From assembly GCF_030384885.1 (NCBI RefSeq), contig NZ_CP128613.1: 64,000 bases of DNA; one strand, written 5' to 3'. The DNA comes from Escherichia coli. Lineage in GTDB: Bacteria > Pseudomonadota > Gammaproteobacteria > Enterobacterales > Enterobacteriaceae. Below the pieces are notes generated by a model. It was given only the letters and a program-made list of their open reading frames with translations, was not told the DNA's origin and ran no database searches. Made by a program: the position numbers and the translations under genes. How positions within the stretch are numbered: position 1 is the first letter of the stretch; every line of letters begins with the position of its first letter. This document shows positions 2,529-29,952 of the stretch, one piece after another.

Positions 2529-2659
2529 AAAAGTTTGATGCTCAAAGAATTAAACTTCGTAATGAATTACGTGTTCACTCTTGAGACTTGGTATTCATTT
2601 TTCGTCTTGCGACGTTAAGAATCCGTATCTTCGAGTGCCCACACAGATTGTCTGATAAA

Positions 2660-2672
2660 TTGTTAAAGAGCA
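2660..2672 (-). promoter_or_regulatory. rrn leader boxA (Nus-dependent antitermination)
   Basis: Minus strand TGCTCTTTAACAA within TGCTCTTTAACAATTTATCAGACAATCTGTGTG leader. Confidence 0.75.
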
Positions 2673-2709
2673 GTGCCGCTTCGCTTTTTCTCAGCGGCGC
2701 GGGGTGTAC

Positions 2710-2737
2710 ATAATACGCTTTCCCGCTTCAGAGTCAA
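2710..2737 (-). promoter_or_regulatory. rrn P2 promoter (-35 TTGACT, -10 TATTAT)
   Basis: Minus strand reads TTGACTCTGAAGCGGGAAAGCGTATTATG; matches the known rrn P2 architecture. Confidence 0.65.
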
Positions 2738-2827
2738 GCATTTTTTTGCTTTTCTCTGTCGAGATTCTCAGGAGAACCCCGCTGACCCGGCGGCGTGTTT
2801 GCCGTTGTTCCGTGTCAGTGGTGGCGC

Positions 2828-2890
2828 ATTATAGGGAGTTATTCCGGCCTGACAAGAGGAAATTTAAAATAATTTTCCGACCGCGCATTT
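2828..2890 (-). promoter_or_regulatory. rrn P1 promoter with upstream AT-rich UP element (-35 TTGTCA, -10 TATAAT, GC-rich discriminator)
   Basis: Minus strand reads TTGTCAGGCCGGAATAACTCCCTATAATGCGCCAC, preceded by AAATTATTTTAAATTTCC. Confidence 0.7.
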
Positions 2891-3007
2891 TTTCAGCAAA
2901 AGCCCCGTTAATGTGCCATAAAACAAGCAATTTGCCGTTTTTGCAACCGTAATCACACTTCCTGGTGGCATACTAAGGAGGAATAAAAAGAAAAAGGAAG
3001 ATTAGTA

Positions 3008-3700
3008 ATGCCTTTAAGCGCACAACAGTTAGCTGCACAGAAAAACCTTTCGTATGTTCTGGCTGAGAAGCTGGCGCAACGGATCTTAAAAGGTGAATAT
3101 GAACCCGGCACCATTTTGCCTGGTGAGATTGAGCTGGGCGAGCAATTTGGAGTGAGTCGTACAGCGGTACGCGAAGCGGTTAAAACGTTAACGGCAAAAG
3201 GGATGGTTTTACCGCGACCACGAATTGGTACCCGGGTCATGCCACAATCAAACTGGAATTTTCTTGATCAGGAATTGCTTACCTGGTGGATGACAGAAGA
3301 GAACTTTCATCAGGTCATCGATCACTTTCTGGTTATGCGTATCTGTCTGGAGCCGCAAGCTTGCCTACTGGCTGCAACGGTTGGCACCGCGGAACAGAAG
3401 GCGCATCTCAATACGTTAATGGCCGAAATGGTGGCATTAAAAGAGAACTTTCGCCGTGAACGCTGGATTGAGGTCGATATGGCCTGGCATGAGCATATCT
3501 ATGAAATGAGCGCCAATCCGTTTTTGACCTCATTCGCCTCGCTCTTCCATTCGGTTTATCACACTTACTTCACGTCAATTACCAGCGACACAGTGATAAA
3601 GCTGGATCTGCACCAGGCGATTGTTGATGCGATTATCCAAAGCGATGGCGACGCGGCATTTAAAGCTTGTCAGGCGCTGCTACGCTCACCTGATAAGTGA
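3008..3700 (+). CDS. yieP: GntR/FadR-family transcriptional regulator YieP
   Basis: 230 aa ORF with N-terminal GntR helix-turn-helix (GVSRTAVREAVKTL); strong RBS AAGGAGGA upstream; K-12 synteny. Confidence 0.93.
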   Translation: MPLSAQQLAAQKNLSYVLAEKLAQRILKGEYEPGTILPGEIELGEQFGVSRTAVREAVKTLTAKGMVLPRPRIGTRVMPQSNWNFLDQELLTWWMTEENFHQVIDHFLVMRICLEPQACLLAATVGTAEQKAHLNTLMAEMVALKENFRRERWIEVDMAWHEHIYEMSANPFLTSFASLFHSVYHTYFTSITSDTVIKLDLHQAIVDAIIQSDGDAAFKACQALLRSPDK

Positions 3701-3722
3701 CACCCCGATAACAGGACATTGA

Positions 3723-5150
3723 ATGAGCGATAAAAAGAAGCGCAGTATGGCGGGTTTGCCGTGGATCGCGGCGATGGCCTTCTTCATGCAGGCACTTGAT
3801 GCCACTATTCTGAATACCGCCTTACCCGCAATCGCTCATAGCCTTAATCGTTCTCCTCTCGCGATGCAATCAGCCATCATCAGTTACACGCTGACGGTGG
3901 CGATGCTTATTCCGGTAAGCGGATGGCTAGCCGATCGCTTCGGTACGCGTCGCATATTTACCCTTGCCGTGAGTCTGTTCACATTGGGTTCTCTGGCCTG
4001 CGCACTTTCTAACTCGCTACCACAGCTGGTTGTCTTCCGGGTTATTCAGGGGATAGGTGGCGCAATGATGATGCCTGTTGCTCGGCTGGCCTTACTGCGT
4101 GCTTATCCTCGTAATGAGCTTCTTCCTGTATTGAATTTTGTCGCCATGCCGGGTCTGGTGGGGCCAATTTTAGGCCCCGTACTTGGCGGCGTGCTGGTCA
4201 CCTGGGCAACCTGGCACTGGATATTTTTAATCAATATCCCCATAGGTATTGCCGGCCTTCTTTACGCGCGCAAACATATGCCCAATTTCACCACCGCACG
4301 ACGCAGATTCGATATCACTGGCTTTTTGCTGTTTGGCCTCAGCCTTGTTCTCTTCTCAAGCGGAATAGAGCTATTCGGTGAAAAGATTGTCGCCAGTTGG
4401 ATTGCCTTGACGGTAATTGTCACCAGCATCGGGTTACTGCTTCTCTATATTCTCCATGCACGACGCACGCTAAACCCATTAATTTCATTAGATTTATTTA
4501 AAACCCGCACTTTCTCGATCGGTATAGTAGGCAATATTGCAACCCGTCTGGGGACCGGCTGTGTACCGTTCCTTATGCCATTGATGTTACAGGTAGGATT
4601 TGGTTATCAGGCGTTTATTGCCGGCTGTATGATGGCACCGACAGCGTTAGGTTCCATTATTGCAAAATCGATGGTTACCCAAGTCTTACGTCGTCTGGGC
4701 TATCGCCATACGTTAGTGGGGATCACGGTAATTATTGGGCTAATGATCGCTCAGTTCTCTTTGCAATCACCAGCAATGGCGATATGGATGCTGATCTTGC
4801 CGTTGTTTATATTAGGGATGGCTATGTCGACGCAATTTACCGCGATGAATACCATCACACTTGCCGATCTGACCGATGACAACGCCAGCAGCGGTAACAG
4901 TGTTCTGGCGGTCACGCAGCAACTGTCTATCAGTTTAGGCGTTGCTGTAAGTGCGGCCGTCCTTCGCGTTTATGAAGGGATGGAAGGCACAACGACTGTC
5001 GAACAATTCCACTATACGTTTATCACAATGGGCATTATTACTGTTGCTTCAGCAGCAATGTTCATGCTTCTGAAAACAACCGATGGTAATAATTTGATCA
5101 AAAGACAGCGTAAATCTAAGCCGAACCGCGTTCCATCAGAATCGGAGTAA
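3723..5150 (+). CDS. hsrA: MFS transporter HsrA (YieO)
   Basis: 475 aa polytopic membrane protein with MFS motifs; K-12 synteny next to rbsR. Confidence 0.93.
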
Positions 5151-24477: not shown

Positions 24478-26019
24478 ATGCAACTGAATTCCACCGAAAT
24501 CAGCGAACTGATCAAGCAGCGCATTGCTCAGTTCAATGTTGTGAGTGAAGCTCACAACGAAGGTACTATTGTTTCTGTAAGTGACGGTGTTATCCGCATC
24601 CACGGCCTGGCCGATTGTATGCAGGGTGAAATGATCTCCCTGCCGGGTAACCGTTACGCTATCGCACTGAACCTCGAGCGTGACTCTGTAGGTGCGGTTG
24701 TTATGGGTCCGTACGCTGACCTTGCCGAAGGCATGAAAGTTAAGTGTACTGGCCGTATCCTGGAAGTTCCGGTTGGCCGTGGCCTGCTGGGCCGTGTGGT
24801 TAACACTCTGGGTGCACCAATCGACGGTAAAGGTCCGCTGGATCACGACGGCTTCTCTGCTGTAGAAGCTATCGCCCCGGGCGTTATCGAACGTCAGTCC
24901 GTAGATCAGCCGGTACAGACCGGTTATAAAGCCGTTGACTCCATGATCCCAATCGGTCGTGGTCAGCGTGAATTGATCATCGGTGACCGTCAGACCGGTA
25001 AAACCGCACTGGCAATCGATGCCATCATTAACCAGCGCGATTCCGGTATCAAATGTATCTATGTCGCTATCGGCCAGAAAGCGTCCACTATTTCTAACGT
25101 GGTACGTAAACTGGAAGAGCACGGCGCACTGGCTAACACCATCGTTGTGGTAGCAACCGCGTCTGAATCCGCTGCACTGCAATACCTGGCGCCGTATGCC
25201 GGTTGCGCAATGGGCGAATACTTCCGTGACCGCGGTGAAGATGCGCTGATCATTTACGATGACCTGTCTAAACAGGCTGTTGCTTACCGTCAGATCTCCT
25301 TGCTGCTCCGTCGTCCGCCAGGACGTGAAGCATTCCCGGGCGACGTATTCTACCTCCACTCTCGTCTGCTGGAGCGTGCTGCGCGTGTTAACGCCGAATA
25401 CGTTGAAGCCTTCACCAAAGGTGAAGTGAAAGGGAAAACCGGTTCTCTGACCGCGCTGCCGATTATCGAAACTCAGGCGGGTGACGTTTCTGCGTTCGTT
25501 CCGACTAACGTAATCTCCATTACCGATGGTCAGATCTTCCTGGAAACCAACCTGTTCAACGCCGGTATTCGTCCTGCGGTTAACCCGGGTATCTCCGTAT
25601 CCCGTGTTGGTGGTGCAGCACAGACCAAGATCATGAAAAAACTGTCCGGTGGTATCCGTACCGCTCTGGCACAGTATCGTGAACTGGCAGCGTTCTCTCA
25701 GTTTGCATCCGACCTTGACGATGCAACACGTAAGCAGCTTGACCACGGTCAGAAAGTGACCGAACTGCTGAAACAGAAACAGTATGCGCCGATGTCCGTA
25801 GCGCAACAGTCTCTGGTTCTGTTCGCAGCAGAACGTGGTTACCTGGCGGATGTTGAACTGTCGAAAATCGGCAGCTTCGAAGCCGCTCTGCTGGCTTACG
25901 TCGACCGTGATCACGCTCCGTTGATGCAAGAGATCAACCAGACCGGTGGCTACAACGACGAAATCGAAGGCAAGCTGAAAGGCATCCTCGATTCCTTCAA
26001 AGCAACCCAATCCTGGTAA
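24478..26019 (+). CDS. atpA: F1 subunit alpha
   Basis: 513 aa, Walker A GDRQTGKT. Confidence 0.98.
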
Positions 26020-26069
26020 CGTCTGGCGGCTTGCCTTAGGGCAGGCCGCAAGGCATTGAGGAGAAGCTC

Positions 26070-28342
<2,273 letters not shown>

Positions 28343-28362
28343 CGCCTTAATCGGAGGGTGAT

Positions 28363-28782
28363 ATGGCAATGACTTACCACCTGGACGTCGTCAGCGCAGA
28401 GCAACAAATGTTCTCTGGTCTGGTCGAGAAAATCCAGGTAACGGGTAGCGAAGGTGAACTGGGCATTTACCCGGGCCACGCACCGCTGCTCACCGCCATT
28501 AAGCCTGGTATGATTCGCATCGTGAAACAGCACGGTCACGAAGAGTTTATCTATCTGTCTGGCGGCATTCTTGAAGTGCAGCCTGGCAACGTGACCGTTC
28601 TGGCCGACACCGCAATTCGCGGCCAGGATCTCGACGAAGCGCGAGCCATGGAAGCGAAACGTAAGGCTGAAGAGCACATTAGCAGCTCTCACGGCGACGT
28701 AGATTACGCTCAGGCGTCTGCGGAACTGGCCAAAGCGATCGCGCAGTTGCGCGTTATCGAGTTGACCAAAAAAGCGATGTAA
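28363..28782 (+). CDS. atpC: F1 subunit epsilon
   Basis: 139 aa, operon context. Confidence 0.97.
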
Positions 28783-28803
28783 CACCGGCTTGAAAAGCAC
28801 AAA

Positions 28804-28833
28804 AGCCAGTCTGGAAACAGGCTGGCTTTTTTA
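28804..28833 (+). terminator. intrinsic terminator of the atp operon
   Basis: AGCCAGTCTG / CAGGCTGGCT stem with GAAA loop followed by TTTTTT. Confidence 0.85.
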
Positions 28834-28978
28834 TATGTATTTTGCTGATTGATACAAAAATTATATTATTCATCAAAAAGTTAGCGTCTTGCCAAGTCGT
28901 TAATTGTCACCTTTTCTCCATAGTGATATCGTCCCTGTTGTTATTATTATTTCTATAATTATATGAGGGATCATATCT

Positions 28979-29677
28979 ATGTCTTTTAAAACGTCTTTTG
29001 AAGGTGTCCAACCGGTTGTGATGACCGATCGCGCCACCTTTATCCGCCGTGCTTATATGCATCTGGCTGGGGCAGTTGTCGGGTTCATCATTCTCAGCGC
29101 GCTGTTTATCTTTAGTGGGCTTGGCAAAATGATGCTTAGGGTGCTGATGAACAGTGGTCAGTTTGGTTGGCTGGTGGTGCTGGGTGCTTTTATTCTGGTC
29201 AGCATGCTGGCGACTCGTCTGGCAGATAATGTGGAGTCTAATCAGACCCAACTGATTGGACTGGGGATATACGTACTGGCAGAAGCGTTAATTTTTGCAC
29301 CTTTACTGACACTGGCAGCGTATATTAATCCAGCAATTATTGGCGCGGCGGGCATCACCACAGCACTGCTTGTGGGTGGTCTGACATTCACTGCCTTCAC
29401 GACCAAAAAAGATTTCTCTTTCATGCGTTCGTTTTTAACCATGGCGGGCTTTATCGCTTTCGGTGCCATTATCGCGAGCATTTTTATGGGATTCTCACTG
29501 GGCGTCTGGTTCTCGGCGGCAATGGTGCTGTTGTGTGCTGGCTTCGTGCTGTACGACACGTCTAATATTATTCATCATTATCCTACCGATCGTCCGGCAG
29601 GTGCGGCGCTACATCTCTTCGCCTCTATTGCTACCATGTTCTGGTATGTTCTGCGCATTTTCATGTCCCGCGATTAA
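28979..29677 (+). CDS. Bax-inhibitor-1 (BI-1/YccA/YbhL, TMBIM) family inner-membrane protein; no gene at this junction in K-12
   Basis: 232 aa, ~7 predicted TM helices, typical BI-1 family layout; own AT-rich upstream region and downstream terminator. Confidence 0.8.
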   Translation: MSFKTSFEGVQPVVMTDRATFIRRAYMHLAGAVVGFIILSALFIFSGLGKMMLRVLMNSGQFGWLVVLGAFILVSMLATRLADNVESNQTQLIGLGIYVLAEALIFAPLLTLAAYINPAIIGAAGITTALLVGGLTFTAFTTKKDFSFMRSFLTMAGFIAFGAIIASIFMGFSLGVWFSAAMVLLCAGFVLYDTSNIIHHYPTDRPAGAALHLFASIATMFWYVLRIFMSRD

Positions 29678-29691
29678 CCCTGCTTGTATAA

Positions 29692-29726
29692 ACCAGCGAA
29701 ATTATTCGCTGGTTTTCCCGTTTATT
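29692..29726 (+). terminator. intrinsic terminator after the BI-1 family gene
   Basis: ACCAGCGA / TCGCTGGT stem, ATTAT loop, T-rich tail. Confidence 0.65.
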
Positions 29727-29952
29727 CATTGATCGAAATAAGAGCAAAAACATCCACCTGACGCTTAAATGAAGGTACTGCCTTAATTTTCTGCAGACAA
29801 AAGGCGTGACGATGGTCGAAAATGGCACTTTCGTTAGCGGGGATAATCCGTTATTGAACAATTTATCCTCTGTCCATTTCACGATGAAAAAAATGTAGTT
29901 TTTTCAAGGTGAAGCGGTTTAAATTCGTTCTCAAATTACAGTCAGGACGCGT

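Follow-up and report, generated by a model that had tools for sequence, protein, structure and literature searches.

A Bax inhibitor-1-family gene at the atpC–glmU junction of an Escherichia cryptic clade I strain and its probable loss in E. coli sensu stricto

The window analysed here, a stretch of 64,000 nucleotides from contig NZ_CP128613.1 of an assembly filed under Escherichia coli (GCF_030384885.1), carries between atpC and glmU a gene for a membrane protein of the Bax inhibitor-1 (BI-1) family that E. coli K-12 lacks at this site. We consider it highly probable that this is an intact and separately transcribed gene for a protein of the seven-transmembrane BI-1/TMBIM fold, that it belongs to the same ortholog group as STM3863 of Salmonella Typhimurium, and that it is an ancestral gene which was lost from E. 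coli sensu stricto and has probably been moved by recombination. When the function proposed below is added to this identity and this history, the account as a whole is the best explanation at hand, and we hold it with moderate confidence. The gene is already annotated and its family and fold are known, its ortholog group being uncharacterised; the new points are evolutionary, namely the loss in E. coli sensu stricto, the polymorphism in cryptic clade I and the mosaic with Escherichia fergusonii.

The original prediction had placed about 820 bp of additional DNA at 28840–29730, which is close to what an alignment of the two spacers gives. The atpC–glmU spacer measures 1170 bp in the window and 352 bp in K-12, a net difference of +818 bp, and the DNA without counterpart in K-12 runs from about 28834 to 29711. 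K-12 has atpC and glmU next to each other, as had been said, with no copy of the gene between them; only the description of its intergenic region as short falls away at 352 bp. The left edge of the extra segment lies right after the T-run of the atpC terminator, and its right edge directly adjoins a ~240-bp block, upstream of glmU, which the window and K-12 have in common. In place of the segment, K-12 carries ~65 bp of unrelated sequence, so the difference is not a clean insertion. The predicted open reading frame (ORF) of 232 codons is present (Table 1). The segment had also been called AT-rich, which does not hold: its GC content is 45.6%, against 48.4% for the window, the coding sequence (CDS) reaches 49.2% GC with 53% at third codon positions (GC3; 54% in glmU), and AT-richness is confined to the 145 bp upstream of the start codon.

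How widespread is the gene within E. coli? A presence/absence check at the junction over 5,426 complete E. coli genomes, which the original prediction had proposed, found the segment in six, always on the chromosome, always at this site and 99.3–100% identical to the window. The other 5,420 lack the gene, and essentially all of them have the same spacer of ~350 bp. One of the carriers, strain 2013C-4282, is identical to the window, and the product is annotated there by RefSeq as WP_000008757.1, 'Bax inhibitor-1/YccA family protein'. Together with 12 non-carriers, the six carriers form the group nearest to the window on both flanks (kup–viaA and glmU–glmS), and on either flank a clear gap separates these 18 genomes from every other genome. 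Published work (PMC10100065) places at least two of the carriers, 2013C-4282 and EC42405, in Escherichia cryptic clade I, which is the lineage sister to E. coli sensu stricto; the identity of the window to K-12, 95–98%, agrees with membership in this clade. We conclude that the window derives from cryptic clade I (strain 2013C-4282). Within the clade the gene is polymorphic, carried by 6 of ~18 related complete genomes.

Orthologs occur in E. fergusonii (99–100% amino acid identity, on hundreds of contigs), E. albertii (89%, plus some copies at ~100%), Superficieibacter (81–84%), Salmonella enterica (78–79%), Pseudocitrobacter (75–78%) and a Citrobacter sp. (74%). In every examined contig of E. 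fergusonii, E. albertii, S. enterica and Superficieibacter the order atpC–gene–glmU is kept in the same orientation. The Pseudocitrobacter gene also follows atpC, and the next gene is not glmU (at one Pseudocitrobacter faecalis locus, L026, a 646-residue ORF at 2555–4495 on the minus strand, with right-handed beta-helix/pectate-lyase-like domains, stands in its place). STM3863 of S. Typhimurium, annotated as 'putative permease / Bax inhibitor-1 family protein', likewise has 232 residues and the same position, and differs from the window in its upstream region. Nucleotide identity of the CDS drops with species distance, from 98.3% in E. fergusonii over 83.5% in E. albertii to 72% in Salmonella. 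Given the same position in other species, the native codon composition, the lack of flanking repeats (no direct or inverted repeats were found at the boundaries of the extra segment) and the lack of plasmid copies (a plasmid search for the protein returned no homolog), parsimony favours an ancestral gene at the atpC–glmU site that was lost by E. coli sensu stricto. On this reading the ortholog group, STM3863 included, was already in this spacer before the split of Escherichia and Salmonella, and E. coli sensu stricto shed the gene in one old replacement or deletion of ~880 bp.

The original prediction, by treating the gene as an extra, accessory one, implied the reverse: a horizontally acquired accessory or mobile islet that had recently entered the atpC–glmU spacer of a few E. 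coli strains. Absence from 5,420 of the 5,426 complete genomes would fit such a gain, as would the AT-rich upstream region and the fact that, among the matches listed, the nearest non-enterobacterial homologs are those of Chitinimonas and Chromobacteriaceae (57–66% identity). We nevertheless regard it as close to refuted, since no fewer than four other genera or species have the gene at the same site, with a divergence that scales with phylogeny, GC content and GC3 of the CDS are native, there are no flanking repeats or plasmid matches, and neither the ORF list nor the RefSeq annotation contains an integrase or insertion sequence element near the gene. A phage collection yielded just two matches, one a Salmonella chromosomal contig of 515 kb, the other an unannotated 2.1-kb fragment that carries the label Salmonella phage.

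Two points weigh against the ancestral gene and its loss all the same. When the 75-bp segment specific to K-12 was aligned locally with the gene regions of five species, its scores did not exceed those of shuffled sequences (z −0.8 to 0.2); with no significant deletion scar, the word 'loss' rests on parsimony. Moreover, absences in the contig scan made for the distribution across Enterobacteriaceae are uninformative, known carriers such as E. fergusonii being missing among the matches listed. The scar had been suspected from a resemblance seen by eye, as if the K-12 spacer still held a degenerate copy of the 3' end of the gene; in this alignment the resemblance proved no better than chance, and the argument was dropped.

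The gene also looks maintained. Purifying selection is evident from the low ratio of nonsynonymous to synonymous divergence (dN/dS), 0.075 in the comparison with E. albertii and 0.03 in that with E. fergusonii. The carrier ORFs examined are all intact; in the five with annotation inspected, the product is one and the same, WP_000008757.1. Across 35 aligned subfamily members drawn from several phyla, 20 residues are invariant, among them F146, S147 and F148 of a loop as well as S195, A209, L213, F214 and Y223. One could still ask whether the gene is a decaying, functionless remnant on its way out of clade I, as it went out of E. coli sensu stricto; it is, after all, polymorphic in the clade (6 of ~18 complete genomes), and mainstream E. 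coli manages without it. The intact reading frames with one and the same protein in five annotated carriers, the low dN/dS values, the ribosome-binding site (RBS) and promoter elements kept between genera, and the invariant residues across phyla together make decay very improbable in our view.

Separate transcription of the gene is suggested by the signals around it (Table 1). The terminator behind atpC is kept in K-12 and in all compared species, and it insulates the BI-1 gene from read-through of the atp operon; the gene therefore needs a promoter of its own. A candidate lies in the AT-rich upstream region, where the −35 element TTGTCA and the extended −10 element (TGnTATnnT) are kept in Escherichia, Pseudocitrobacter and Superficieibacter, and the region of the RBS and start codon (ATGAGGGATCAT...ATG) is nearly invariant between genera. 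Transcription from this candidate promoter is predicted to start near 28939. Behind the gene, a terminator-like hairpin lies at the right boundary of the extra DNA. Its RNA fold has an energy of −16.3 kcal/mol (z −4.4; none of 200 shuffles was equal), and the consensus terminator scan did not call it because its U-tract is weak. An upstream region and a terminator-like hairpin belonging to the gene, in line with the original prediction, can thus be recognised.

Table 1. Positions of the BI-1-family gene, its neighbours and other features in the window
Feature	Position	Strand	Basis and details
atpC	28363–28782		ORF list
Intrinsic terminator of atpC (atp operon)	28801–28833	+	13-bp stem, 4-nt loop, T-run; terminator scan, inverted repeat I3
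AT-rich upstream region of the BI-1 gene	28834–28978	+	29% GC; promoter scan
Promoter-like −35, TTGTCA	28904–28909	+	promoter scan, inferred
Extended −10, TG-n-TATCGT	28924–28932	+	promoter scan, inferred
RBS, GAGGGA	28965–28970	+	8 nt ahead of ATG
BI-1-family CDS	28979–29677	+	six-frame ORF list, 232 aa
Terminator-like hairpin of the BI-1 gene	29690–29715	+	perfect 11-bp stem AAACCAGCGAA / TTCGCTGGTTT, then TTCCCGTTTATT; inverted repeat I6
Small RNA STnc410 (Rfam RF02060)	29712–29869	−	cmscan, 186.6 bits (gathering cut-off 50), E 1e-43, model positions 1–158 of 158
glmU	29953–31323		ORF list
Type III effector pseudogene	43702–44465		in the phoU–yieH replacement
Pentapeptide-repeat protein	44604–45794	−	in the phoU–yieH replacement
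800-aa hypothetical protein	46092–48494		in the phoU–yieH replacement

But how did the gene come to be carried by some members of clade I and missing from others? Measured against E. fergusonii, the synonymous divergence (dS) of the window is 0.07 for the BI-1 gene, 0.10–0.13 for glmU and 0.22 for glmS; against E. albertii, the respective values are 0.80, 0.45 and 0.40. Judged by the comparison with E. albertii, the BI-1 gene evolves at about twice the rate of glmU and glmS, and once scaled for this rate it stands 3–6 times nearer to E. fergusonii than vertical descent predicts. From atpA to atpC, the entire clade I group has its alleles in common with E. fergusonii, as distinct from four phylogroups of E. 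coli sensu stricto and from E. albertii. The non-carriers have atp and glmUS alleles like those of their clade-mates and are of the K-12 type only from ~28821 to 29827, a patch of ~1 kb that constitutes the difference between carriers and non-carriers. Because the clade I atp alleles match E. fergusonii, and because the non-carriers switch to the K-12 type in this patch only, we read the atp–glmUS region as a recombination mosaic. The unexpected closeness of the carrier allele to E. fergusonii (dS 0.07) further suggests that interspecies recombination with E. fergusonii shaped it; homologous recombination across the conserved atp and glmU flanks would probably have moved the gene between Escherichia species.

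A simpler history would have the gene inherited purely vertically in clade I, the non-carriers having received the deletion allele of E. coli sensu stricto by recombination. The K-12-type spacer of the non-carriers, set within atp and glmUS alleles of the clade I type, does look like an imported deletion patch, and the carrier alleles form a group of their own (99.6–100% identical among themselves, 98.1–98.4% to E. fergusonii). This history could be right, and we nonetheless think it unlikely: the dS of the gene against E. fergusonii lies 3–6 times below the rate-scaled expectation from glmU and glmS (0.10–0.22), the atp alleles of clade I likewise side with E. fergusonii, and near-identical proteins in some E. 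albertii records (P0007, P0014) indicate that the allele moves between species. Exchange with E. fergusonii, which may have run either way, is the reading we favour. The mosaic region itself spans 25000–28782 (atpA–atpC) and 29953–33314 (glmU–glmS) of the window. Within it, glmU and glmS of clade I are equally far from E. coli sensu stricto (dS 0.13–0.23) and from E. fergusonii, and atpC of K-12 differs from that of one E. fergusonii strain by a dS of 0.000.

Turning to the protein, residues 20–228 match the Pfam family Bax1-I (PF01027) along practically the whole profile (positions 2–207 of 207; 114.2 bits against a cut-off of 34.1, E 9e-33). The AlphaFold2 model (predicted local distance difference test, pLDDT, 89.5; predicted template modelling score, pTM, 0.84) consists of seven long helices and one short one, and the BI-1-type protein with ~7 transmembrane segments that the original prediction had described is confirmed by both results. 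About 17 hydrophilic residues make up the N terminus, the first 12 of which are modelled as disordered (pLDDT < 50). In a Foldseek comparison with the PDB, the top ten matches are all chains of Bacillus subtilis YetJ, the pH-sensitive Ca2+ leak channel (PDB 4PGR and others), with a probability of 1.00, template modelling scores of 0.65–0.79 and root mean square deviations of 3.1–4.2 Å; the first match other than YetJ has an E-value above 1. Sequence and profile searches of the PDB returned no match for the protein, so that the link to YetJ comes from fold comparison only.

The protein had been taken for a third paralog beside YccA and YbhL, but K-12 already has three Bax1-I members, YccA, YbhL and YbhM, which makes it a fourth. 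All three are core genes (yccA is found in 5,425 of 5,426 genomes), belong to the same Pfam family as the window protein, and, in the case of YbhL and YbhM, are similar to it in length. By BLASTP, the best match among them is YccA, with 35% identity over the C-terminal 95 residues (E 1e-10), the common motif TSNIIH and 25% identity overall; YbhL follows with 25% over 134 residues (E 2e-4), and YbhM gives no significant pairwise similarity. Like YccA, the FtsH protease modulator, the protein has seven predicted transmembrane segments and a hydrophilic N-terminal tail. This tail is the one trait observed that would fit degradation by FtsH through the N terminus and complex formation with FtsH/HflKC, as for YccA. 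It differs in its locus, yccA lying at tusE–yccA–tRNA-Ser–hya, and scores 30.1 bits with the NCBIfam YccA equivalog NF007765, for which the cut-off is 353 bits. With 30 bits against 353, and 35% identity over only 95 residues, we take it not to be an ortholog of YccA.

The residues of the di-aspartyl pH sensor tell the family members apart. At the positions of D171 and D195 in YetJ (whose sequence in the alignment is identical to chain 4PGR_A), the window protein has D193 and S216, YccA has Glu and Ser, YbhL keeps both aspartates, and YbhM has Gly and Tyr. The window protein, then, retains the first sensor aspartate and has, like YccA, a serine for the second, so the complete di-aspartyl sensor is not present. 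It also shares with YetJ an aspartate in a loop (D145, in KKDFSF here and KKDLSF in YetJ), at an identity to YetJ of 18–23%. Human TMBIM5, a mitochondrial Ca2+/H+ exchanger and a very remote member of the same superfamily, keeps the di-aspartyl dyad, which the window protein does not.

What could such a protein do? Bacterial BI-1 proteins are poorly understood functionally, and before the Brucella homolog described in one report, YccA and YetJ were the only ones that had been studied (PMC7876416). YccA is a substrate of FtsH that forms complexes with FtsH/HflKC, inhibits FtsH and stabilises SecY (PMC7876416, PMC9379554), while a pH-gated Ca2+ leak is documented for YetJ and TMBIM proteins (PMC7876416, PMC9379554). 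TMBIM5 unites both sides in one BI-1-fold protein: it combines ion transport with inhibition of an FtsH-type protease, the FtsH homolog AFG3L2 (an m-AAA protease), and responds to the proton gradient (PMC9379554). Our literature search found no functional study of STM3863 or of the window gene, STM3863 being mentioned only twice and in passing, and no paper that treats YccA, YbhL and YbhM jointly. A sigma-54 binding site has been located by chromatin immunoprecipitation on microarrays (ChIP-chip) inside STM3863, on the sense strand (PMC3844500). The site maps inside the Salmonella ortholog (locus L007, 4483–4500, with 2 mismatches), and the window has no counterpart even when 3 mismatches are allowed; this absence rules it out as a conserved feature of the ortholog group.

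By analogy with YccA, the product would sit in the inner membrane, its disordered N-terminal tail on the cytoplasmic side; it would probably associate with FtsH/HflKC as a substrate and competitive modulator, and it would buffer the turnover of membrane proteins under envelope or energetic stress. We put forward this YccA-like role, as opposed to a channel of the YetJ type, tentatively, and FtsH modulation remains an analogy; our lean towards it stems from the missing second sensor aspartate, from YccA being the closest characterised relative and from the disordered N-terminal tail. Alternatively, like YetJ and the TMBIM proteins of eukaryotes, the protein may leak or exchange cations (Ca2+/H+); it would then serve ion or pH homeostasis of the cytoplasmic membrane and have no part in proteolysis. 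YetJ is, indeed, the only structural match (template modelling scores of 0.71–0.79 here), D193 and the invariant loop aspartate D145 of KKDFSF are retained, and ion transport is the best-documented activity of the family (PMC9379554, PMC7876416). Such a channel is conceivable; what makes us doubt it is that the second sensor aspartate is replaced by Ser216, that YccA, the closest paralog, has not been shown to transport ions (PMC9379554), and that D193 gives way to Tyr, Gln, Thr or Glu in many members of the 35-sequence alignment, so that the gating mechanism of YetJ cannot be the conserved one.

Several observations speak against the YccA-like role, too. The homology behind it is remote, with 25% overall identity to YccA, and the YccA equivalog score falls far below its cut-off. 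Clustering of the ORFs at 80 loci revealed no linkage to FtsH/HflKC and no other conserved neighbour: neighbours are shared only among closely related genomes, and the large clusters consist of overlapping frames of the gene itself. The variability of D193 across the wider subfamily counts here as well.

It is tempting to go one step further and connect the gene to its neighbourhood, as the original prediction did when it suggested that a copy beside the atp operon may be physiologically relevant. A functional tie of this kind is not supported, since distant members of the subfamily have unrelated neighbours; the position next to atp is inherited synteny, with no evidence of a functional tie. 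The boldest version, in which STM3863-type proteins are a second YccA-like regulator of FtsH/HflKC whose position next to the atp operon is functional and which tune membrane-protein turnover to the energetic state of the membrane, strikes us as improbable. If it were true, the tuning would parallel the action of TMBIM5 on the mitochondrial m-AAA protease, and this level of regulation would have been given up in E. coli sensu stricto. Unassembled F0 subunit a, which was reportedly found to be an FtsH substrate by Akiyama, Kihara and Ito in 1996, would be one of the substrates concerned.

The parsimonious reading turns the event round: the best-studied bacterium underwent a lineage-specific loss, rather than an odd strain acquiring a gene. 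K-12 would accordingly be left without one of the four BI-1-family proteins of the Escherichia ancestor, and the gene offers an easy marker for the mosaic exchange that links E. fergusonii with cryptic clade I around atp–glmUS. The ortholog group, with its YccA-like Asp/Ser variant of the sensor and its presence in the genetically tractable Salmonella and E. fergusonii, also seems a reasonable comparator for distinguishing FtsH modulation from ion leak. The practical value is small, however, and there is no sign of a new kind of system; we see in it a modest curiosity of the pangenome.

Some smaller features of the junction deserve mention. The small RNA STnc410 lies in the block upstream of glmU that the window has in common with K-12, on the strand opposite to both glmU and the BI-1 gene, and is separate from the latter; in Salmonella it has been predicted in the STM3862/STM3863 spacer (PMC2916834). 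Its 3' end falls exactly at the edge of the segment absent from K-12 and abuts the palindromic hairpin, which could in principle end transcription from both directions. In the stem of the atpC terminator, position 28821 is a G in the window and an A in most clade I genomes. By the pairing read from the sequence, this exchange turns a G–U wobble (the partner is the T at 28810) into an A–U pair; the A variant is found in carriers and non-carriers of the BI-1 gene alike, and an A/T polymorphism linked to it is located at 28799, just beyond the stem.

Elsewhere in the window, further segments depart from K-12. Between glmS and pstS, at ~33316–38741, lies an lpfO113 long polar fimbria operon (lpf genes at 33621–38598) without a match in K-12, which clade-mates and strain IAI39 also carry at this site; its usher gene lpfC is annotated as frameshifted in the identical strain 2013C-4282. 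Between phoU and yieH (43414–48641), the bglGFBH–yieLK–cbrBC region of K-12 is replaced by DNA that includes a type III effector pseudogene, a pentapeptide-repeat protein and an 800-residue hypothetical protein (Table 1), and the yieH–adeP stretch beside this replacement is only ~85–93% identical to K-12. In the identical strain, RefSeq also annotates a frameshifted type III effector gene of the ShET2/EspL2 family, which lies at 58041–60211 between tnaC and mnmE.

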